Assembly: GCA_964016885.1 (NCBI GenBank)
Contig: OZ024741.1
Coordinates: forward strand, 80,848,001 to 80,912,000
Reading direction: 5' to 3'
Length of the DNA stretch: 64,000 nucleotides
Source: Eledone cirrhosa
Lineage: Eukaryota
Part shown: positions 29,270 through 63,340 of the stretch, one piece after another
Position numbering within the stretch: position 1 is the first letter of the stretch
How the letters are laid out: each line of letters starts with the position of its first letter
The notes under the pieces: generated by a model
Seen by the model: only the letters and a program-made list of their open reading frames with translations
What the model was told of the DNA's origin: nothing
Databases searched by the model: none
Made by a program: the position numbers and the translations under genes

Positions 29270-32200
29270 CCCGTGACCAAGAAATACCGGGATGGCGGCC
29301 GGCGGGGAATAGCCATGTCTCTAGGGGAGAACGACCCCTCTAGTCTTGGTTGACACTCGTTCTAGAAGTGGTAACACGAAAAGATTACCCCTTGGCGGAT
29401 AAGGATAAAACGCGACAAAATAAAGTAGATGTCTAATGATGAAATCTCATACCGGATCGGGCGTCACCCGGGTAAAAAAGGGCCGCGTCCCTCAGAGAGG
29501 AACCAGACTGGGGTCGAAAAATCAGCTAATGGTTCAAACCTTCCCATCACTTCGGAGCTGGAGACCTCCCATAACCGGAATACTCCTACTGTTGGCCCTC
29601 CATGCTCAGCACCAAGAAATCCAAAGAAAAAGAGAGAAAAATGGTCAAGGGAAGATAATAAAGAAGTCCTTGAGGCTTTCTATACTGCCATGTACTACCC
29701 ATCAAATACATCGAATACAGAGCAAACATATATCAACTGGAAAAAGAAACATCCCGAAAACAGAGGCTATATTGACAGTAACAAACTAGCCAATATACGA
29801 AGAAATATTGTAAGAAAAAAGTTACTAACTGATATAGAAATTGATCAGATCAAGCTAGTAGCACAAAGTCAGCGAAGGGAAAATGAAGCACGTGTCAGTG
29901 AAAACGAGGTAAACTGTAACACTTCGAATCCCAGAGTTGGGGCGGAATCACTGGCAACAGAACAAATTAAAGAAAGGAGCGAAAAAGTGGAGGGAGTGCA
30001 TGCTCAGGATGAAACTCCAAATGAAAATAATGAGATCGTAAATGATAAAGAAATGAATGAGAATGAACTTGCCAACTTGAAGGATGAAATTATGATCGAA
30101 TGGATGAAAATGAAAGAAACTGACATGGGGAACGAGACACCCTCCCTAAGATCCAGAACTCCAAACAGAACCAAAAGATAATACACAAGACTAACATAAT
30201 TCTCAAAAACATTATCATCACAAACAAAATAAACATTACTGACTTAAATCATCTCTATTATGCACCGGCTAAAGTCACCACTCACTTATGTGGAGTGAAG
30301 ATGAAAAAACAAAGGAATTCCCACAAGAAATCTACTTGGCAAGATAACATCAATCGCCAAATAAACCTTCTCCGATCTGACATAGAAATTTTAACAAACT
30401 ATAAAGTAGGTGAACATGTTAAACAAACTAAACTTAGAAAATTGAAAAAAAAGTACAGTATAAGATCAACATGTGACATAGACATGCTGATAGAAACAAT
30501 CAAGCAAAAAGTGTCGGCCAAAGCTGCTCGTATAAGGCGCTTTGAAAAACGATCTAGATTCTATAAGGACAATAATATGTTCAAAAACAACCAAAGAAAC
30601 TTCTACAGAAAAATTGGTAAGTCAACAATAACTGCTAAATCAATACCACCCAAGGAGGAAGTGCAAGAATTCTGGGAAAAGATCTGGGCCGAAGAAAAAG
30701 TTCATAACATACATGCCCCATGGATAGACAGACAAATGAAAGAAACAGCTCACCTTGAAGAACAAACATGGGAAAATATAACAGTTGAACAGCTGCGCTT
30801 GGCTCTAAGAAAAACCAGCAAATGGAAATCCCCAGGAAAAGACAAAATACAAAACTTTTGGATAAATGCCTTCACAGAGTCTCATGAGCTGTTGGCCCAA
30901 CTTTACAATGAAATAGTTAAGGAGCCAGAAAAGATACCATCATGGCTAGTTAACGGCATTACATTCCTGCTACCGAAGAATGATGAGACAAACAATCCCA
31001 AAAATTACAGACCGATAACCTGCTTGACCACAATGTATAAAATTTTAACATCAGTCCTAACTGAATACACATATGACCACCTGATAACAAATGACCTATT
31101 TCCCATTGAGCAGAAAGGGTGTAAACGAGGCTCATATGGCTGTAAGGATCAGCTTCTGGTTAACAAAATGATACTGGAAGATTGTCATAATAGACACAAA
31201 AATCTATCGATTGCTTGGATAGATTATAAAAAAGCATTTGATAGTTTGCCACACAGTTGGATTGAAAAATGTTTAGAGATTTTCAAAATATCCCCCGTTG
31301 TCAGGAGGTTTTTGTCATTCAGTATGAGGACATGGAGAACGACACTCCTTTTGAATAGTGAAACAAAATCACTGGAAGCTGGAGAAGTTAACATTAATTG
31401 TGGAATTTTTCAGGGTGACTCTTTATCACCGCTTTTATTCTGCATCGCACTTATACCATTAAGTAAAATGCTCAATGAAACAAAACATGGATATAGAGTC
31501 TATGACAAAACCATTAATCACCTGTTCTACATGGATGACCTGAAACTATTCGCAAAAAATGATGAACAATTGCAAGGGCTATTATCCACTGTGAAGCAGT
31601 TCAGTGATGACATTAAAATGGAGTTTGGACTGGATAAATGCGCCAAAGCAACGTTCACCAGAGGAAAGCTGCTGAAGAGTTCAGACATTAATCTTGATCG
31701 GGGGAACGTGATAAGAGAGCTTGATCAAGAACAAACTTACAAATATCTAGGTGTTTGTGAAGGAGACGGAATCAAGCACTCGACAATGAGGGAAAGGATA
31801 AGGAAGGAATGTTACCGCAGAGTCAGAGCAATCTTAAGAACGGAATTGAATGCAAGGAATAGGATCGATGCCATAAACACGCTTGCCATACCAGTAGTAA
31901 CCTACAGTTACAATGTCATCAACTGGTCAAGCACAGAGATCCGTAGGCTCGATACAAAAATCCGAAAATTCTTAACCATGCACAGAATGCATCACCCTAA
32001 GGCAGACATAGATAGAATATATCTCCCTAGGAAAGAAGGAGGACGTGGGTTAATCCAGTTAGACATTGCGTTGAAAACTGCAACAATTGGATTATCCACA
32101 TATCTAAGGGAATCACATGATTGGATGATCAAACTCGTTTTGAAACACGAAAGCACCAAAAGATCATATTCCATTACAAAAGATGCACAAAGATACAGTA

Positions 32201-33219
32201 ATGGACTACAAATTTCAGAAGTCCCATTTACTGCTGAAATGGAAAACACAGAAAAAGCAAAGCAGGTAAAAGTAACTGCAAAGAAAGAACTGCTACAGAA
32301 ACTGGCTAAGAAATGGCAAGAAAAGCCTCTGTATGGAAAATACCCAGAGCGAGCTAACAATCCTGATGTTGACAAAACTTTAACCCATCAGTGGTTGGCA
32401 TCCTCTGGACTGAAATCGGAGACTGAAGGACTGATTATCTCCGCACAAGATCAGTGTCTGCCAACAAAAAATTACCAAGCCAACATAATAAAAAATGGGT
32501 GCAGCCCATTATGCCGTGTATGCAAAAAACAACCAGAGACCATTGACCATATAATTTCAATGTGCAGTCCTATAGCTCCAACCGAATACCTAAACAGGCA
32601 TGACAGAGCTGCACAATACATACATTGGATAATGTGTAAGCATTTTGACCTGCCCCATCAAAAGAATTGGTGGGAGCATCAACCACTTCCCATACTTGAA
32701 AAAGATCACATCTCAATCTTGTGGAACTTTAGCATCCAAACAGACCGAAAAATAGATGCAAATAGACCTGATATAATATTGAAGGACTTTCAAAGGAGGG
32801 TATGCCTGCTAATTGATATGTCTGTTCCAATAGACAAGAATGTATCTATAAAAACATTTGAAAAATTGAGCAAGTATAAGGACCTGGAGATAGAAATTGG
32901 AAAAATGTGGAAATTGAGAACTAAAACAATACCAGTGGTTGTAGGCGCTCTGGGAATGATACCTAAGGGGTCTAACGACTACTTATCGCAAATCCCAGGA
33001 AACCCGCGTATAGGAGAAATACAAAAGATAGTACTAATGGGAACTGCCCATATACTAAGGAAGATCCTGTCAATATAAGTACATCACAAGTCTAAACACT
33101 AAGGATGCATGTGTGAATATGTGTGTTCTTTCTTGAACATGGCGGACCTTGTTGTCTCTTGAGGTCACTGGTTGTGACTTGGTGATAACTCGTATAAACA
33201 TAAAGCAAGATAAATGCAA
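29270..33219 (+). mobile_element. R4/Dong-like copy E, a second diverged family, near full length
   Basis: RT-RLE ORF, 3' UTR, (TAA)n tail 33220-33246. Confidence 0.9.
29429..33078 (+). CDS. RT-RLE polyprotein of copy E, frameshifted near 30130 (ORFs 29429-30181 and 30295-33078)
   Basis: YRPITCL, QGDSLSPLLF, FYMDDLKLF, CRVCKKQPETIDHIISMC, RHD, RPDII..D..EKLSKY. Confidence 0.88.
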
Positions 33220-33289: not shown

Positions 33290-33382
33290 CACGTGTGACG
33301 TGCGTTTCGCGATCGATCAGCTCAAATAACGATCGGTATGGATCGCGCCCGACTCTGAAATCAATAGCTCATCAGACTAGTG
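33290..33382 (-). ncRNA. Type I hammerhead ribozyme candidate with long stem II
   Basis: Minus strand: cactagt CTGATGA gc..gc GAAA cgcacg TC acacgtg; stem I has a 2x2 mismatch. Confidence 0.55.
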
Positions 33383-33580: not shown

Positions 33581-33690
33581 CTATATATATATGTAGGAGG
33601 TGAGATTTTATTGTAGCACAATAAAGCAATATGTTGATTTAAAACTTCACTATTCACAAAGTGTTTTTTAAGCTTCATATCATGTCTCCC

Positions 33691-33761
33691 TATTTTATCT
33701 GATGAGAACGCAGATATCATCCCATGATGATATTTGTTTTTGAAATGCGCATAATAAAATA
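33691..33761 (+). ncRNA. Hammerhead ribozyme, family A, within a ~200-bp element 33591-33792 flanked by (TA)n
   Basis: tattttat CTGATGA [long stem II] GAAA tgcgca TA ataaaata; 8-bp stem I, palindromic stem III. Confidence 0.85.
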
Positions 33762-34471
33762 CTTGGAACTCTTTTAACCATCTTTTGATCTTATATTATA
33801 TATATATATATATTGGATATATAGATATATATTTTTTTTCTGGAGAGAACGTTGGAAGTGATTTCGAAGTTTCATCTAATTCTTCTTCTAATTGAAGATA
33901 GTTAGGAGAAGCACTCGCTGAAACATCGAAGTCACTGCTTTATATTTAATGTATTAGACGTTTGGGGCCTCTCACTTGCAATAGCTTTTTAGTGTCTCCG
34001 TGAATGTTTTTGTGAATGTGTATATGTGTGCGTGGGAGTGCATGTGTGTGGAGGGTGGGTATTAGATTCAGTATGAAGTACCAGCAGATAGTAACAAACA
34101 TGGAAAGGCCAATGGAAACATTATTTCCTTGGTCAGTTCTGACGATTGGCTCCTTTCCGCTTTCTTTCCTTTTTTCCTTGTCTGAAAATTAACAATGGAT
34201 ACATGAAAACGAGTTGGCAAGTTATCCGAAACATACTTTATAAGCATAGCGTAGAATTTACTTCATAAATTCATAAATGGCAACTTGTCTGTTGTATTTT
34301 TCTTGATTATTTAAAACAGACTGATTAACTTACAGCACGTTTAATGAAATCAAATGTCTAAAAATTACAAAAATATATAAATAGATAACATAAACAAAAT
34401 AAATATAATAGATAAATATACAAATAGAGACGAAAATAGAAACAAACAAAATGGCGCCGACCGCTTTTTTG

Positions 34472-35554: not shown

Positions 35555-35642
35555 TATATATGTGTGTTATACATATGTACATATATATATGTACATATGT
35601 ATAACACACATATATATAAACATATATATATATATATATATA

Positions 35643-36681: not shown

Positions 36682-36748
<67 letters not shown>

Positions 36749-36957
36749 TATGTATACGTACATACATATATGTATACAGACGTACAGTAGTATGTATATA
36801 TATACATACATGCACATATATATATATGCACGTATCGGTTTACCAAACATTTATTATAATGCTCGGTTTGTTTGTTTGTAAACAAACAAACAGCCCGAAT
36901 TACGCCGTACAGTGTTTAGGCAACCACGTCACCTTTTTGTTCAACACTGACACAGGA

Positions 36958-37000
36958 ACGATGTACTAGTTTCAAGCTTATTAGCTATCGTCAGCATCGT
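36958..37000 (-). ncRNA. Minimal hammerhead ribozyme, family C
   Basis: Minus strand: acgatg CTGACGA tagctaataagctt GAAA ctag TA catcgt. Confidence 0.88.
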
Positions 37001-37653
37001 ATACCTTCCTGCCAGATGGTTGAACGTCTGAAAGTATATACTTTACTTATGCATATTAACGGCTGAGCAGCCTAATTTGCATATCGAGTGAGTTCAGTCG
37101 GCCGGGCACACCGAAAACGATAAATGGAATAGAATGAAACGAAATTTTATTTCTCACTCTTAGTACGGCACTTACTTAAATGTAAGTATGTATACGTACA
37201 TACATATATGTATACAGACGTACAGTAGTATGTATATATATACATACATGCACACGTATATATATGCACGTATCGGTTTACCGAACATTTATTATAATGC
37301 TCGGTTTGTTTGTTTGTAAACAAACAAACAGCCCGAATTACGCCGTACAGTGTTTAGGCAACACGTCATCTTTTTGTTCAACACTGACACAGGAATATGT
37401 GTGCATGTATGTATATATATACATACTACTGTACGTCTGTATACATATATGTATGTACGTATACATACTTACATTTAAGTAAGTGCCGTACTAAGAGTGA
37501 GAAATGAAATTTCGTTTCATTCTATTCCATTTACCGTTTTCGGTGTGCTCGGCCGACTGAACTCACTCGATATGCAAATTAGGTTTCTCAGCCGTTAATA
37601 TGCATAAGGAAAGTATATACTTTCAGACGTTCAACCATCTGGCAGGAAGGTAT

Positions 37654-37696
37654 ACGATGCTGACGATAGCTAATAAGCTTGAAACTAGTACATCGT
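37654..37696 (+). ncRNA. Minimal hammerhead ribozyme, family C
   Basis: acgatg CTGACGA tagctaataagctt GAAA ctag TA catcgt. Confidence 0.88.
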
Positions 37697-37803
37697 TCCT
37701 GTGTCAGTGTTGAACGTTAAGACCCTCTTCCTACTATATGAGGCGTTAACCTAATATATCCCTTCCAGATACTGTACCGATTGTGTTGTTATTTCTGTTT
37801 ACC

Positions 37804-38803: not shown

Positions 38804-38977
38804 CATACGTAATAAAAACAAGGTGGAGGTGTTACATAGGAGAATTATTGCTTAATCCTGGTTTGAACAATAAATCTCTTAGGTAACACCTCCACTTTGT
38901 TCTTATATACACTCTGCTCTGCATCGAGTGCTGACCTTGGTACTCGCACCAATTTTCTTCGGACTTACTGAACTTTT

Positions 38978-39019
<42 letters not shown>

Positions 39020-39100
39020 TTATTCCGGGTTAAATCGGGGGTAACCACAGTAAGTAAGGTACTCAATACATAGCAGAGTATAAATGTTTTAATATAGAAA

Positions 39101-39151
39101 AGCTTCTACAGGACTAGAACTGTTTCATTCGTGAGAAATCATCAGGAAGCT
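39101..39151 (-). ncRNA. Hammerhead ribozyme, family B
   Basis: Minus strand: agcttc CTGATGA tttctcacgaat GAAA cag ttctagtc ctg TA gaagct. Confidence 0.8.
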
Positions 39152-39198
39152 TCCTGATGATTCCTCACGAATTAAACAGTTCTAGTCCTGTAGAAGCT
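39148..39198 (+). ncRNA. Hammerhead ribozyme, family B, core mutated (GAAA to TAAA)
   Basis: agcttc CTGATGA ttcctcacgaat TAAA cag ttctagtc ctg TA gaagct. Confidence 0.65.
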
Positions 39199-39206
39199 TT
39201 TCTATA

Positions 39207-39307
<101 letters not shown>

Positions 39308-39498: not shown

Positions 39499-39599
<101 letters not shown>

Positions 39600-39816
39600 A
39601 TACTTGGGGAGGGTCATATTTATGTAATATTGCCAGAATTAATAACAGAACACACTCACTGTTTGGTTGGTTTTCGCTTTTCGCGAAAAGTGAAAACCAA
39701 CAACCAAACAGTGAGTGTGTTCTGTTATTAATTCTGGCAATATTACACAAATATGACCCTCTCCAAGTATAACAATATTAGTTTCGACACACGATTTCAT
39801 ATAAAAAACCTCGCAA

Positions 39817-39881
<65 letters not shown>

Positions 39882-40045: not shown

Positions 40046-40125
40046 AACATCCATACAGCTTTGGGTAGAACTGTTTCGCAAATCAGTGGAGAGAGTTAGA
40101 GATCGCGTGCTCTTCAGTGAATGTT
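40046..40125 (-). ncRNA. Type I hammerhead ribozyme with conventional stem III
   Basis: Minus strand: aacattca CTGAAGA gca..tgc GAAA cag ttctacccaaag ctg TA tggatgtt; 8-bp stem I. Confidence 0.85.
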
Positions 40126-41937: not shown

Positions 41938-42508
41938 TACTTGTGGGGGTATGTGTATGTGTGGGGTGTCTCCCTCAAACGTCACATAGTTGGAAGCTTC
42001 TTCCAAATATTGGGACTTTTGGGAAATGTCCATCGGGGTAATATTCAAAATCCTGTTGCTTAGCAACGGTTGCTGCAAATGAAATTTTGTTATTGTTGTT
42101 GTTGGTGATGATGGTCTCATTCTTTGTGTTGCCGCTGATTCCTTTTGTTGTATTGTTGTTGTTCTCATTTATTGTGTTGTTGTTGTTGTTGTTGTTGTTG
42201 TGGTTTGTGGAGGTGTTAGTATTTGCTACACATTCTTCCCTCTGTGCGCGGATACATGTGACGTTTGTGAAGCCAGGCGTGTTCAGTTGCTTACAAGCAA
42301 CTGAAGCGTGTTCCTCTTCTAAATGTTGAGGCGATAATGTTGGCATTCCTTTGTCCATGTCTGCTACTATCTGCTGGTCAAGTAGGCATGGCTTTCCCTT
42401 CCCATCTTCTTGTATTGACAAAAAAGCAGGTGCCTTTGCTTCGGACATTTCGCCGGCAGTTAGCTCGAGACATGGTCCCTGTATGGATCTGGCTGATTCT
42501 ACGGCTGA
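41938..42508 (-). mobile_element. Inverted copy of the ORF1 5' region of Tx1-like copy H
   Basis: Reverse complement of ~42957-43532; ORF 41975-42517 matches ORF 42919-43791. Confidence 0.85.
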
Positions 42509-42687
42509 ATTACACAATGAATATTGTTTACCCTAAGGTGCTTCAAGATTGACAGATTTTCATTTCTAAATTCTATTATCATTACAATTTTGTTATTTTA
42601 AAAATAAAATATAGATATTTTGAAATAATTATGAGAAAAAAAAATCATATCTTCATATTTATTGTTTACTAATCTAAATAAGAACAG

Positions 42688-42720
42688 CAGTAACCCAGGA
42701 AACGCCGGGTAATTCAGCTA

Positions 42721-42722
<2 letters not shown>
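42688..42722 (+). mobile_element. Helitron-like 3' terminus
   Basis: Subterminal GC hairpin cccaggaaacgccggg, short spacer, CTAG followed by T and (TA)n. Confidence 0.5.
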
Positions 42723-42796
<74 letters not shown>

Positions 42797-42899
42797 GTGT
42801 ATAATGGTAGCTATGGTGCTTCCATAGGCGGTATGCCAAAATTAGCACTCGATATTCAGCAGAGTAGAGTGTAGATAGTATAAAGAAAACGAAAAATCA

Positions 42900-43267
42900 G
42901 TGATGCATCTGATAAAATTTGGTCCGAACGAACTACCCGTGTCTGAAAGAACCTGCAGCCGTAGAATCAGCCAGATCCATACAGGGACCATGTCTCGAGC
43001 TAACTGCCGGCGAAATGTCCGAAGCAAAGGCACCTGCTTCTTTGTCAATACAAGAAGATGGGAAGGGAAAGCCATGCCTACTTGACCAGCAGATAGTAGC
43101 AGACATGGTCAAAGGAATGCCAACATTATCGCCTCAACATTTAGAAGAGGAACACGCTTCAGTTGCTTGTAAGCAACTGAACACGCCTGGCGTCACAAAC
43201 GTCACATGTATCCACACACAGAGGGAAGAATGTGTAGCAAATACTAACACCTCCACAAACCACCACC

Positions 43268-43342
<75 letters not shown>

Positions 43343-46300
43343 CAATAAATGAGAACAACAACAATACAACAAAAGGAATCAGCGGCAACACAAAGAATGA
43401 GACCATCATCATCACCAACAACAACAATAACAAAATTTCATTTGCACAACCGTTGCTAAGCAACAGGATTTTGAATATTACCCCATGGACATTTCCCAAA
43501 AGCCCCAATATTTCCCACATACCCCCACAAGTAAGAGAAATGACACAGAAAAAGAAACTGATATACAGAACAGTTGATATCATTACCAAAAAAACCATAA
43601 CGCTCCCAACAATCACTATTGAAGCTGCACTAAAAGATATCAAGCCAGACGTGGCATACCTCCAAAGAGGTAAACAGTATGGAAGTGTGTCAGTGCTCTT
43701 TAAGAGCGAAACTCTGGCTCAAAAACACTCGATTTACCCAATAAAAACGGATCAACACATCTTCTTGGGAAGAAGATCCTACAAAATATAATAACCAGGA
43801 TCCCAGCAGAGGTCAACATTTGGTGGATCCTACGCTGCATCCTGAAGAAGGATGAGGACACCCTCCTATCTGTAGACAGGACAGACCGGAATAACTGGTT
43901 TGGAACCTGCATCGAGGTTCTGGTACACATGAGGCCAGAGAGAGTTGAGAAAATCCCGAACAGGATCGTCCTTGAGGAAGATGTCATCTCCATTTTAGTG
44001 GAGGGGAAAAGACCTCAGTGCCATAAGTGTGAGAAAAAAAACCGAGGACAAACAAGGTGTTATTACCAACACCAAAACCCCAACATCAACACCCCAAACC
44101 GTACACAATACAAAAACCTGCAACATCCACTCCCACACCACCACAGACCAGAGACAACCACACACACAAAATCCCACTGAAAAACCCTCCATTTCCTCCT
44201 CCCTCCCTGTCAAATACTTCCACAAACACCTCTACAAACACTCCACCACACAACATACCCCTCCCATCTACCCATGATTCAGAAGTCTCAGACACGGGAA
44301 CCTCTACATCTCCAAGTGAGAATGAAGAGGAACCCCAAAAATCCAAAAAACAAAAAAAGAGACAAAAAAAAAACAACACAAAAACATAAACATCTACAGA
44401 AAACACGCACACACCCAACCCCACCACAAACGACAAACACACCAACAACACAATCACCACCAACACAACCAAACACTTCACCAACAAAACAAACACCCAC
44501 ACCACCACAATCACAAACCCCAACCACAAAAAGAAAACTACAAACAGAAACAGTACACATAAAAACAAAACACATTACACATACATAAAAACAACAAACA
44601 AAGAACTAGTAGAAACCCTCCGAAAGGACCCTAATATCCAAACGGAAGGGAAAACTTTCCCCACCAACGACCCACCTCCAAACCTCAAACTGATCAGGGT
44701 AACAACCCTACAACATGAAACATTGAAAGGGACCTTCCCACATGATGTGGGCCCCCCTTGCCAAAAACTCCTTAACCGTGTCCTGCTGAAAGGATTCTCT
44801 CCCTCACCAAACACACCCAATCTGGACATGGAGATCGAACAATCCTTTTCTCTCCCTAACTCTTCTTCACCAACATGGCGACTATACAAGTTGGATGTTT
44901 GAATGTACGTGTCCTGAGCATGCCCTGGGAACAGGGCCATCTTTTAAATGATCTCAGGTCACATTGTATAGATGTGATAGCCATCACCGAGTCCAGGATT
45001 CACGACAAGCAGCAGCCAAACCCCATGTTCGATGACTTTGAGATCGACGCCTCTCTGTCAGCCAGGAGGTGGAGGGGGAGTTGTTGTTCTGTTTGGAAAA
45101 AAACTTGGATCTCAAAGCACAGACGATTCACTTGGACCTGGGGGGCAGCTTGATGGTCCTGGACGTGAATGGTAGTGAAGGTGGAGCTTTCAGACTGGTG
45201 GACGTATATGCCCCGACTGGGACATCGCGACGAGAGTTCTTCAAGCGTCTGAAGCCATTAATGGGAACGTCTCGCTCCTTAGTGTTAGCGAGGGACTGGA
45301 ATGGCATCTTAGATGCACGTTGGGACTATGTAGGAGATTGTGATAAATGAGGGGCCTAAAAAATCTCATCAGCCAATTCCAACTGGCTGATAGATATCGA
45401 CTAGACTTCCCAAGTGTACCACTGTGGACGTGGAGCAACCGGACTGGGTTTCTAGATCGTATTTACATAGATTTTTAATTAGACAGAATGATAAGGAAAC
45501 ATTAAGCTGTCCACAAATGCACATGGATGCCTATTCAGACCACAAATAGTCACCTGCGTAGTCAACCTTGATAGAACACATAGACAGGGACCCGGATACT
45601 GGAAGCTAAACATGTCGCTTCCGGCGCGTAAGGCCTACAGTAAACGGATTAGCACCTTAGTTAAGTGCCAGTTGACGGGGGAGATCGTCAACAACAGGTG
45701 GTGAAGCTCGCTCAAGAGAGCAATTATAATAGAATCGATAGCATTTAGCAAGGAAGTAGCTTTAGAAAAAAACAAAACGTGCTAGCGGCGAGAACGGCAC
45801 TAGACCAGTTCTTCAACGTGAAACACGAAGTTTGTATTGTCAGAAGTAGAACACGTGTTCTAAGAAACGAGGGAGCCAAAGCTGTTAGCTGGGCCCGAGT
45901 GGCAAAGGCGAAAAGTGGCAAGAAATCCACGATTCGGTCTTTGCAAGACAACGATAGACGCATTATACTTGAATCCAAGCAGATGTGCACTGCCTTCCAG
46001 CAGCATTTTGCACAACTGTTCGAGAAAAGCAGTACGTCAAGGGAGGTGATGGACTTCAGCTCCTACCTCGACGGCATACTACGACTCTCGAGTACGGATG
46101 CAGAGAGTTGCGAAAGGCCGATCACAGCGGGCGAAATAGAAGATGCCCTAAGCCGCTGCAGGAAACGCAAATCACCCGGTTTAGATGATCTACCCTATGA
46201 GTTTTACATAGGCATGCCAGACTTGTTCTCTGGCGTCCTCGAAGCGGACTACTGCAACTGGCAGCAGAACGGGAGGATTCCCAGTTCTGTAGGCAGAGGC

Positions 46301-54705: not shown

Positions 54706-55513
54706 CTCTTTCGCTAAGTTAATCGCGTGTCAAGAAATAGCATGAAAGCGATATATTTCCTTTCCAAGAAGTCAGTCCTGCCTGGAATGGAAGAAAACAA
54801 ATTCAAGAACGAAATAATGGTTAGATGGATGGAAAGAAAGTGTTGGGGTGGGTGGTTGAAGGTGGGGGCGAATTATCTGTTAGTAGACAGAAGGTGGAAG
54901 TGAGGGCGTGTGGGTGATAAGGTGGGGCAGTTTGGTCGAGGAAGCTGTAGTTTGAGTGCAACAGATATTTTAACAGGGTGCGTGTCAACGAAACATTAAA
55001 AGTGTTTACTTAACTCAACCTGTCTTCAGTTTAAATAGCGACAAAAGCCGAGGAAAATGCTTGTCAATTGTTTGAATGGCGGGAAATAATTTCTTGTGGT
55101 TGTTGTTGCTGTTGTCATTATTGTTGTAGCTGCAATTGTTGTTGTTCTCGAGTTGTTGCTGTTTTCGTGTTGTTGCTTTTGCTCTGGTTGTTGTTGTTAC
55201 CGTTGCTATTGTTATTATCGATGCGGTTCTTATTGTTACAACTGTTTGTTGATGTTTATTATTATTGCTGTTGCTGCTGTTGTTGTTCTAGTTATTACTG
55301 GCGTTATTTTTTTGTTTGTTTTTGATTAAAGACGAGGAAATTGGAATCCGCAACCGTTTTATTTTCTTCTTCTTCTTCTTCTTCTTCTTCTTCTTCTTCT
55401 TCTTCTTCTTCTTCTTCTTCTTCTTCTTCTTCTTCTTCTTCTTCTTCTTCTTCTTCTTCTTCTTCTATTGGTAATACCAATAACAACAACAAGACCAGCG
55501 ATGACCCCACCAC

Positions 55514-55789
55514 GGCATATATGAATGTAGGGTGAATACCAGCAACCACGCCTTCACCTATATCGGAGCCACGGCTAATAAGTTTAAGGAACACTGGTAC
55601 AATCACTGCCACACCTTTAGGAGGGCGGATAAGAAGCACAGCACCGCCATCTCGGAACTAGTGTGGCGTCTCAAACAGGATAACGTAGAATTCACCATGT
55701 CATGGTCCAAGGTAGCATCGGCTCAACCATACAGAGAGGATGGACATGACTCGTGCGATTTGTGTGCCACAGTGTTACCAATGGCTTAA
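55514..55789 (+). pseudogene. GIY-YIG endonuclease remnant of a Penelope-like element
   Basis: Reads GIYECRVNTSNHAFTYIGAT..FKEHWYNH..TF..STAIS..VW.LK..W..CDLC. Confidence 0.8.
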
Positions 55790-57196: not shown

Positions 57197-58121
57197 TGGC
57201 GTGGATATTTTTGCATATATTCTAGCCATTAGAAAAAGCAGAAATGAATGCTTCACATTCGAAAAAGGGATGACTCAACAAGAAGAAGGTGGTATGAAAC
57301 ATTGGCCCAAAGGGCTATGAGACTGAACCTGAAACCACACATGTGTGATGCGAACTTTCAAACCGCATATCCATGACTCTTGTAGAATGAGACAAACAAA
57401 CTTTAAGAAATAAAACATTACGTACCGATCGTTTTTATCAGAAAATTACACAAGAAAACAATAGTAATAAACTATAGTCCATTAGCTGAGATGCTAACGA
57501 GATTGCAGCTAGCTTAATTATATACAGAAGGAGTAAAGTGCTAACAGTACGCAATTCGTATATCACCTTTAATTATCAGAGAACAGAATTAATTTACTCA
57601 TGAATCCGCCCACTAGACCTGTCAACCTTACTAAAAGTCAATTAGATATACTTGCCCCAAAACATTTTAAGCAAAATAACTATCAAAATTTAAGAAACGT
57701 TTCATGTTTATATTATCAGAGATAAAGTGATTCAATCGCATCAATAATTATAAACTACAATATAAATTTCTCCAGCTTGATATTATAGACTATCGTCCTT
57801 CAATTATTAAATCTACTTTCAAAGCATTAACTTTCCCCTGAGTGAATCCGACTTAAATGCCATTATGCATGGAAGGAAATCGCTATTCTCTTTTGAAAAC
57901 AACCTGTGCGAGCAAACGAAAATGACAATTCTTCCTTTGATAATAGCAAAGGTTTAAAGGAACTGGTTTATGAAATAATTTGTCTTTATCCCATGAATCT
58001 GATATGTATTAAATAACATTTTTTCAGTGTTGCCTATAGCACGATAAACTTCGTTGTGTATAGGAAGAACACATGTAAACACATTATATTATTCTCTACG
58101 TACAAAGAAAACCTTAAGATA

Positions 58122-58168
58122 ATGCCATTCCGTGTTTCACAGCTAATTGGCTGTTCATCAGAAAAGAA
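58122..58168 (-). ncRNA. Degenerate hammerhead motif
   Basis: Minus strand: CTGATGA acagc caatta gctgt GAAA cacg GA; perfect stem II but U16.1 lost and stem I poor. Confidence 0.45.
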
Positions 58169-58323
58169 GTAATATATTCTTCCACTTACTGATGCAATTG
58201 CGTTGTCAAACGAATGCACTTTATGCGAATTAAACAGGCCATTTCATTCAAGATGTAGTTTGTCTTTGACAGCGGAGTGCCATGAATTCTCTTATGGAGA
58301 AAAAACATGTTGATGCATAGCTG

Positions 58324-58403
<80 letters not shown>

Positions 58404-58433
58404 GAGAGACGGTTTTATTCTACATCCCTATTT

Positions 58434-58510
58434 TATTCATTATACGTATTTCGACGAAGATGTAAGGTAGTTATATAATAACTGCCTTACACATTCTCGT
58501 CAGACAAACA
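58434..58510 (-). ncRNA. Hammerhead ribozyme, family D
   Basis: Minus strand: tgtttgt CTGACGA [long hairpin] GAAA tacgta TA atgaata. Confidence 0.85.
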
Positions 58511-58575
58511 TACAAACGAAATATAATATTCTGTTGATGTGTTATTCACCTCGCCGACCAATACACATATGTAAA

Positions 58576-58649
58576 TGTTTGTCTGAAGAGAACGTGTAAG
58601 GCAGTTATTATATAACTACCTTACATATTCGAAATACATATAACGAATA
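58576..58649 (+). ncRNA. Hammerhead ribozyme, family D
   Basis: tgtttgt CTGAAGA gaacgtgtaaggcagtta..taactaccttacatattc GAAA tacata TA acgaata. Confidence 0.85.
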
Positions 58650-58884
58650 ATATAGGATGTACAAATAAAACCGTCTCTCTTATTTATTGTAATAAAAGAC
58701 CGGCGGATGAACAAAATCGTGGAGTACTTCACGTCTGTTAAAGACTAAGTCGGCAGATTTTTAATCAACCAACTTTCTTCAATTGAATAAGTATCCATTG
58801 TAGAACAATCGTTTCAGAGAGCATAAATGTTAATGGATGTTATCTAACTCCATATCATTCGCCTTGAAAAAACACATCCACTCT

Positions 58885-58927
<43 letters not shown>

Positions 58928-58966
58928 ATATATGTATATATATATTTAATATAGATCATCAGGAGA

Positions 58967-59016
58967 GCTTTCCTGATGATTTCCTTCGAATGAAACAGTT
59001 CTAGTCCTGTAGAAGC
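58967..59016 (+). ncRNA. Hammerhead ribozyme, family B (element extends to ~59095)
   Basis: gctttc CTGATGA tttccttcgaat GAAA cag ttctagtc ctg TA gaagc; downstream sequence matches the reverse complement of ~39020-39100. Confidence 0.8.
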
Positions 59017-59621
59017 CATTTCTATATTAAATATTTATACTCTGCTATATATTGAGTACCTTACGTACTGTGGTTACTCCTGATTGAACCCGGGATGCAC
59101 ACACACACACATATATATATATATGCTGTGTCTGTGTCTGTGTGTACACACACATAGATATAGAAAGTAAAGGAAGACAAGCAGAATACAAGCAAACATA
59201 AACACTGGAACATGCTGGTGTTCACAAACAACAGTATACCATCATCCAACACCACCACAACTACAACCCACAATCCACCATACACCACTACCACCATCAC
59301 CCCACCACCACGACTATCACTACCATAAAACACACCCTCCACGACTTCACGATCTACCACTAGTCACAAAAAAGAAAGAAAAACCAAAGGGAAGCTGTCC
59401 AAATGGTTGGTAGATCTGCCAGAAATAGCGGTCAAATCTCATTGGAATTAGCAACTTCAATCTAAAAATAGAAGGACACAGTGTAGTCCTACAGACGCTA
59501 TCCAGAACAAATCAATGGCTGGAATATCTTTGATTAGATGTCTGTTAGATAAGGGTTGACCGGAGGCTAGACAACAGCAACAACAAAATCATAAAATTAT
59601 TTGTATATACAGACACATACA

Positions 59622-59723
<102 letters not shown>

Positions 59724-59929
59724 TGCATGTGTCTGTATATACAAATAATTATATATATATACTGTTTTTATTATCAATGCCAAAAAAAAACCCCCATCAT
59801 CGTCTCCATCATTATCAAGATCATAAGAAGAAGGAAACCTTTTAGGAAGATGATGGCGACAATGATGATAAACATTCCGGTTTCAGTGATGGTATCGCGT
59901 GACCAATAGAGGGCAATGTAAAACAACAT

Positions 59930-62330: not shown

Positions 62331-62439
62331 AAGCCATACAAAACTGAAAAGGTGGTCAAGAAAGCATTAACCACCCAAGCCAAAAACCAAATCAAGCTAA
62401 ACAGGTCAAAACAAAATAAATGATAAAAAATAAGTGTTA

Positions 62440-62515
<76 letters not shown>

Positions 62516-62624
62516 TAACACTTATTTTTTATCATTTATTTTGTTTTGACCTGTTTAGCTTGATTTGGTTTTTGGCTTGGGTGGTTAATGCTTTCTTGAC
62601 CACCTTTTCAGTTTTGTATGGCTT
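62331..62624. repeat. Inverted repeat with ~113-bp arms centred on (TA)n
   Basis: aagccatacaaaac...gttaacttt (TA)n aaagttaac...gttttgtatggctt. Confidence 0.92.
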
Positions 62625-62747: not shown

Positions 62748-62803
<56 letters not shown>

Positions 62804-62833
62804 ATCAAAAGATGGTTAAAAGAGTTTTCCATG

Positions 62834-62904
62834 TATTTTATTATGCGCATTTCAAAAACAAATATCATCAAGCAATAACATTTGCGTTTTCGTCAGATAA
62901 AATA
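62834..62904 (-). ncRNA. Hammerhead ribozyme, family A
   Basis: Minus strand: tattttat CTGACGA aaacgcaaatgtta..tgatatttgttttt GAAA tgcgca TA ataaaata. Confidence 0.85.
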
Positions 62905-63013
62905 GGGAGACATGATATGAAGGTTAAAACACACTTGTGAATAGTGCAGTTTTAAATCAACATATAAATTGCACTATTCACAAGTGTGTTTTAACCTTCA
63001 TATCATGTCTCCC

Positions 63014-63083
63014 TATTTTATCTGAAGAAAACGCAAATGTTATTACATCATGATATTTGTTTTTGAAATGCGCATAATAAAAT
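63014..63083 (+). ncRNA. Hammerhead ribozyme, family A
   Basis: tattttat CTGAAGA aaacgcaaatgtta..tgatatttgttttt GAAA tgcgca TA ataaaat. Confidence 0.85.
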
Positions 63084-63340
63084 TCATGGAACTCTTTTAA
63101 CCATCTTTTGATCTTATATATTATTATTTATACTCCAATCCTACAAACTGTATAGTGCTACTTATCCAATATTTGCATTGCTTTATTGTACTACAATAAA
63201 ACTCACCTCCTACATATATATATATATAATATATATGGGATGACGCTGGTACGATGTGTGTATTTTTTTTTTAAATGCAACACGTGCTTCTAGTGATTCA
63301 CAGACTTGCATTTGCTGTGTAAACACAGATAGTTAAATCT

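Follow-up and report, generated by a model that had tools for sequence, protein, structure and literature searches.

Back-to-back hammerhead motifs in the Eledone cirrhosa genome as probable remains of a Penelope-like insertion

How do two hammerhead ribozymes come to lie back to back on opposite strands of an imperfect inverted repeat? The question is raised by a locus at 58324..58884 in a 64,000-nucleotide stretch of Eledone cirrhosa contig OZ024741.1, the whole of which is referred to here as the window. The initial annotation gave the repeat arms of ~115 bp, and this was borne out by alignment of 58395-58511 with 58575-58688, which yielded 106 matches, 7 mismatches and 5 gap columns over 118 aligned columns (93.8% ungapped identity). 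The feature consists of two 3' ends from the same multicopy repeat family, each truncated on its 5' side and placed head to head. It is highly probable that the locus is the product of a Penelope-like element (PLE), by whatever route, and we favor, with moderate confidence, the reading that a single PLE insertion, with two predicted priming events, left it behind as a dead scar.

The left boundary is formed by an A29 run with an (AT)n tract (58324..58394), which adjoins the 3' end of the left copy and is likely to be the insertion target. The left copy (58395..58572, minus strand; contigs 58395-58516 and 58457-58572) is truncated at its 5' end and stops at the short 3' end of the family, 58395, which sits 2 nt from a tract of at least four TA units. 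What had been annotated as a spacer of ~60 bp is instead element sequence: the 63-nt stretch between the arms continues the left copy in the 5' direction (58512..58572, minus strand), as indicated by a contig covering 58457-58572, loose contig ends before 58578, and comparison by eye. This part is ~15 nt shorter than its counterpart in other family copies, again as judged by eye. The two copies abut at ~58572/58575, within a head-to-head junction region (58565..58577) that includes an 8-nt palindrome at 58565-58572. Up to the short 3' end, where the feature had been thought to terminate, the right copy, on the plus strand, spans 58575..58688 (arm alignment and contigs). It reaches 58790-58794, however, on the evidence of contigs 58579-58784, 58589-58788 and 58657-58790, so that a one-sided 3' extension or tail of ~102-106 nt (58689..58794, plus strand) leads to a long 3' end, which lies 141 nt away from the closest TA tract. 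Each copy thus holds element sequence private to itself, namely 58512-58572 on the left and 58689-58794 on the right. The right copy contained no open reading frame, nor was the ORF start described for PLE tails seen in it.

These boundaries were defined with four of the six public runs listed, none of them an RNA run. The four were mapped onto 466 bases of the locus at 80% likeness; X1 and X2 are contigs from one sample, while X4 and X5 are RAD reads. The 466 bases were matched by 461 and 469 contigs and by 113 and 162 reads, respectively, and the family is therefore multicopy. In 23 and 17 contigs, the sequence before 58578 resembles the minus strand of 58512-58540 (by eye). Because other copies extend before 58578 and beyond 58569, both copies at the locus must be 5'-truncated. 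The family has two 3' ends, a short one at 58687/8 and a long one at 58790/4, each followed in other copies by TA-rich sequence: 16 X2 contigs continue past 58688 into (TA)n, and the loose contig ends past 58790/58794 are TA-rich. Taken together, the contig-defined left sequence and the two family 3' ends indicate that a left copy with the short end abuts, head to head, a right copy with the long end. Contig depth on 58651-58698 and 58747-58794 is far above that on the hammerhead, and many contigs start at 58656 with different upstream sequence, which suggests related subfamilies with a common 3' end and tail.

Could the inverted repeat be a fold-back artefact of reads or assembly? Among the pieces listed, no contig or read crosses the junction, and the right flank (58795-58860) has zero depth in X1 and X2, with one X4 read beyond 58795. 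Moreover, the assembly may contain artefacts of this kind, as suggested by a 100%-identical palindrome at 62331-62624 (arms 115/115, centred on (TA)n), which may itself be a fold-back of a read or of the assembly. Nevertheless, an artefact is scarcely credible here. Mismatches between the arms were already cited against it in the initial annotation, and that argument stands (7 mismatches, 5 gap columns), strengthened by the unequal ends of the two copies, which match family boundaries; furthermore, the same layout was found in contigs from the public runs. Smaller palindromes are also present in the window at 59591-59754 and 35555-35616.

Both arms carry a full type I hammerhead core facing outward, with CTGANGA at 58503 (minus) and 58583 (plus). 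The left motif (58434..58510, minus strand) has its core at 58503-58497, helix II at 58496-58453 and a predicted cut after 58441; the right motif (58576..58649, plus strand) has its core at 58583-58589, helix II at 58590-58630 and a predicted cut after 58642. In both, helix I comprises 7 bp including G-U pairs, helix II (44 nt on the left, 41 nt on the right) folds into 17 bp, and GAAA, a 6-nt helix III insert and a UA cleavage site are present. The back-to-back arrangement with a long stem II, left on minus and right on plus, was thus correctly recognized from the outset. Measured on the sense strand, the core lies 105 nt from the short 3' end. A hammerhead descriptor gave 11 matches in the window versus a mean of 0.06 (maximum 1) over 100 block shuffles, a contrast that is somewhat flattered, since the thresholds were chosen after the motifs were first seen. 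Rfam returned no match at the gathering threshold anywhere in the window, the hammerhead models included. The 24 sub-threshold matches in 57800-59400 were mostly to miRNA hairpin models, and a miRNA reading of them was rejected as hairpin noise, all being below threshold.

Are the ribozymes themselves likely to have shaped the locus? The left motif has a minimum-energy fold of -22.8 kcal/mol, compared with -15.1 kcal/mol when folded as a hammerhead, and its core is predicted to pair into helix II, leaving the motif misfolded. The helix III palindrome is intact in the left motif, whereas that of the right motif is broken at 58638, a position that is G in most other copies (25 contigs; 277/371 depth in X1); the computed energies of the helix III octamer self-duplex are -6.5 kcal/mol (left) and +1.0 kcal/mol (right). 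Both ribozymes are accordingly predicted from these models to be inactive, being either buried or broken. In the computed folds of either strand, the arms pair with each other to form a single long hairpin (-163 and -182 kcal/mol). Since the motifs are on opposite strands, one transcript would hold one ribozyme and its antisense; the ribozymes are passengers and, as an opposite-strand pair, could not dimerize with one another within a single transcript. Within the family, helix II variants tend to preserve pairing (marginal counts, by hand). Either of the common family variants restores pairing at the 58602/58618 mismatch, and at the paired positions 58607 and 58613 the variants G and C occur with similar frequency, again on marginal counts. 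Hairpin-driven DNA repair could be an alternative source of such paired variants.

Other copies of the family bear on whether the foldback moves as a unit. Fifteen of 18 joints from other loci were examined, most of them seen in one contig per run. Five of the 15 are head to head with breakpoints of their own; three are plain antisense-into-sense joints (58420 to 58664, 58544 to 58677, and 58570 to 58656) and two, joining opposite strands, were judged from side length (58589/58760, and 58655/58718, which is ambiguous). A sixth head-to-head joint, 58420 to 58669, comes from a separate table. One of the 15 is tail to tail (58697 to 58395, with uncharacterized sequence between), and seven are same-orientation deletions or tandems, which are uninformative on orientation. 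The remaining two, 58452 to 58596 and 58454/58615, were set aside, since they probably reflect mis-mapping at the helix II palindrome. All of the joints examined have breakpoints different from the junction in the window, as far as fragmentary contigs and 15 of 18 joints can show.

The initial annotation spoke of MITE-like foldbacks, a description that holds for the look of the locus, a short multicopy inverted repeat adjoining TA, and for the look only. Were the foldback mobile as a unit through a DNA transposase, its inverted repeats should be terminal and its junction shared. Instead, family sequence runs ~100 nt past the right arm, leaving the inverted repeats short of one terminus, and among the joints just described, seen in fragmentary contigs, none repeats the junction at the study locus. 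No target-site duplication was found at the locus: the best candidate, a 5-nt direct repeat at the ends of the inverted repeat, is AT-rich and was obtained only by sliding the ends, and a TA duplication could hide on the microsatellite side only. To our knowledge, intact hammerhead cores are not expected in a MITE. We therefore regard this reading as largely refuted and very improbable.

Divergent geometry is a general feature of the window. All four hammerhead pairs are divergent, as had been claimed: 36994-/37660+, 39145-/39154+ (with a damaged core in the plus copy, which the descriptor does not match), 58503-/58583+, and 62896-/63022+. When all orientable pairs are considered, six of six are divergent, an outcome with a chance of 1 in 64 if convergent and divergent pairs were equally likely. 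In addition, each of the five pairs whose ends could be fixed by a second family copy combines one short and one long end (1 in 32); besides the study locus, these are 62803-63213, 33593-33791, 39018-39210 and 58946-59096. At 62803-63213 the arms are non-nested, with 13 extra 5' nt on the left and a ~99-nt tail on the right. At 33593-33791 the inverted piece comprises only the last 47 nt of the family tail and has no overlap with the main copy, making this the clearest case for two priming sites. The tails in two neighboring families measure ~99 and 72 nt. Of 13 ends placed, partly by eye and from alignments running into TA tracts, 10 lie within 10 nt of a tract of at least four TA units, compared with 5.8% of background non-tract positions in the TA-rich parts; the long end of the study locus is one of the three that lie away from TA.

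Several further structures in the window deserve mention. The 36739-37715 locus is a partial tandem with an inverted copy, its arms 97.5% alike; it contains the minimal hammerheads 36994 (minus) and 37660 (plus), its unit carries an internal TA-rich stretch, and it shows the fuller textbook form of the insertion layout. The foldbacks at 39595-39820 and 38812-38980 are single copies lying between TA tracts, each extended on one side only, as far as such a tract (by eye), and neither has a recognizable hammerhead. In a neighboring hammerhead family, three of four copies (33629, 39498 and 62965) start at an identical 5' position, which suggests that the RNA has a fixed start or that the unit is short and non-autonomous. 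A solo hammerhead at 40117 (minus) has a looped helix III of 5 bp and could fold on its own, in monomeric form, and a hammerhead core with a 60-nt helix II region at 33375 (minus) fails the strict descriptor.

It might be argued that the two copies arrived separately, as independent insertions of a retrozyme-like non-autonomous hammerhead element, or that one copy was duplicated in inverted orientation at the DNA level. Judged by the likeness of the family to the locus (196 of 461 contigs at 90-95%, and 142 below 90%), the two arms are no more alike than members of the family are, and the arms alone therefore do not establish a single event. The one tail-to-tail joint points in the same direction, as do TA-centered DNA foldbacks in the window that are unrelated to hammerheads, namely the 62331-62624 palindrome and an inverted duplication of ~500 nt at 42005-43513, which lies at the start of a LINE-like frame and has arms 98.8% alike (ungapped) with a TA tract between them. 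At the study locus, on the other hand, there are no tandem units (none within 57500-59600) and no TA tract between the copies, and divergence in six of six orientable pairs and mixed ends in five of five speak against both processes. The non-LTR retrozymes (PMC7229834; bioRxiv 10.64898/2026.07.22.740005) are similar in being non-coding and multicopy, in having a type I hammerhead, and in their proposed derivation from PLEs, but they are head-to-tail tandems, unlike the inverted pair without a tandem unit found here. Both versions of this explanation, taken together, appear improbable.

A single PLE insertion, in contrast, has the layout that is observed. As described in the literature, PLE insertions carry an inverted 5'-truncated copy and a tail of 30-40 bp at one end, with (TA)n targets (PMC8557442), and head to head is their commonest arrangement (PMC3846280). 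The statement in the initial annotation that Penelope-like insertions often carry inverted terminal segments agrees with both of these sources, in which the formation of the inverted ends is called open. The locus resembles the insertion unit (pLTR) of endonuclease-bearing (EN+) PLEs in its head-to-head truncated copies, its one-sided tail and the (TA)n by its ends (PMC8557442, PMC3846280). Like the EN+ PLE target, its left end adjoins (TA)n, although the right end does not. The hammerhead is likewise located ~100 nt from the 3' end, 105 nt at the locus and at position 2403 of 2507 in Hydra-1_oBim, and Penelope-13_HM has a hammerhead on each strand (PMC8557442). The differences are a tail of ~100 nt rather than 30-40 nt (31 nt in Pen2a_Av) and copies without any remaining ORF.

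The motifs are also close to the minimal PLE hammerheads, for which PMC4209133 describes dual motifs that occupy opposite strands, 100-700 bp from one another, and reports little activity, also for the dimers. A full core, a G-C first pair in helix II, a palindromic helix III and opposite strands are shared with these. Conversely, helix II at the locus is 17 bp, as opposed to 7-8 bp in PMC4209133 and up to 9 bp in the portion of the PMC8557442 File S2 table that was available, and there is no extra base between the core and helix II. In the literature covered, which left subscription papers and Repbase largely outside its scope, no account of ~100-nt tails or of a 17-bp helix II was found, and none of five short motifs (four from the study family, one from a neighboring family) occurred in the available part of the PMC8557442 supplement. 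The locus is thus ordinary in kind, an unnamed family with the known PLE insertion layout, and unusual only in degree, with respect to its tail and helix II.

How would such an insertion produce two unequal, outward-facing ends? In the proposed scheme, a protein with reverse transcriptase and GIY-YIG activities would nick an AT-rich target on both strands. From each of the two nicks a cDNA would be primed, beginning at one or the other of two sites on the element RNA that correspond to the short and the long end, and both cDNAs would stop early and be joined at their growing ends. Priming from two nicks would make the element 3' ends face outward, and hammerheads ~100 nt from the 3' end would consequently become divergent. 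In L1 twin priming, two target nicks similarly prime two cDNAs, the joining of which gives a 5' inversion. There the second primer pairs at an internal position and only one copy of the 3' end results, unlike at the present locus, where both arms start near the 3' end. PMC11167929 reports that, in vitro, a PLE protein nicks and extends both strands and prefers AT-rich DNA, that two reverse transcription start sites on the RNA bound the tail, and that hammerhead cleavage is dispensable. A common insertion mechanism behind the divergent geometry, as put forward in the initial annotation, is supported, and the layout itself has already been published (PMC3846280 and PMC4209133).

The second arm might instead derive from snap-back self-priming of one cDNA or of an antisense template, still within a PLE insertion. 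This was proposed for rotifer Penelope from palindromes at inverted junctions (PMC3846280), and perfect junction palindromes occur here too, of 26 nt (39137-39162), 14 nt (centre 39683) and, at the study junction, 8 nt; the pairs with the 26-nt and 14-nt palindromes agree with this model. Two insertions of the family at 39.1 and 59.0 kb fold back at the same palindromic helix I spot (39137-39162 and 58955-58980), either because self-priming recurred there or because an existing foldback was copied. The best palindrome, however, was at most 6 nt in five of the eight junctions tested. More importantly, a snap-back copy holds only first-strand sequence, and plain snap-back therefore fails for the study locus, where both arms have private sequence, for 62803-63213, and for 33593-33791, where the arms do not overlap. 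As neither arm contains the other, we infer that two separate priming events are favored over snap-back. Later deletion at the junction is a loophole in this argument, since removal of the tip of a symmetric palindrome could mimic unequal 5' ends. On balance we consider self-priming unlikely as the origin of the study locus, and both processes may operate. The favored two-primer reading could be taken further: these short foldbacks would be an in vivo record of a dimeric PLE protein that, in every insertion, primes the two target strands from two fixed positions on the RNA and leaves mutually non-nested arms, in families with tails (70-110 nt) and a helix II (17 bp) beyond the described range. 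We put this forward tentatively, as somewhat doubtful. If true, a strict rule of one long and one short end would favor twin priming over the published self-priming model. The single locus matters little in this respect, being the fossil of a known insertion type, but a genome rich in short pairs could separate the two models through counts of end types and arm nesting. For annotators, such foldbacks are mistakable for MITEs or miRNA hairpins.

Is there a protein in the vicinity that could have made the insertion? No reverse transcriptase or endonuclease frame linked to this family was found in the window. At 55505-55777 (plus strand), 2.6 kb from the locus, a stretch of 91 stop-free residues is the remnant of a GIY-YIG endonuclease, for which no link to the family was found; its Pfam GIY-YIG match (E value 0.0084) is below the cut-off, and it has 1622 relatives at E values of 0.001 or less. 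One relative of 713 aa (P0096), to which the remnant aligns at the C-terminus with 38% identity, shows the Hydra-clade PLE motifs DKT, RW-R/K and CxCX5C (by eye), and had no match among solved structures. The remnant thus resembles the endonuclease of Hydra-clade PLEs, and PLEs are present near the locus. A word-based search for longer relatives gave eight candidates, none at an E value of 1e-5 or less, and six of seven longer relatives had no Pfam match. Assignment of the family itself to the Hydra clade was considered but not adopted, given that the remnant is unlinked and that Hydra helices III in File S2 are mostly odd-looped. Viral contigs had no motif matches, and metagenomes had none to the hammerhead motif; a single metagenome match to the tail motif (L001) was discarded as a chance 22-nt match within a bacterial gene. 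The window is repeat-rich and also contains many (TA)n tracts and several LINE-type frames, of which all three tested match Pfam RVT_1. A non-LTR reverse transcriptase frame of 984 aa is uninterrupted at 30124-33078 (plus strand), preceded by an upstream frame at 29429-30181.
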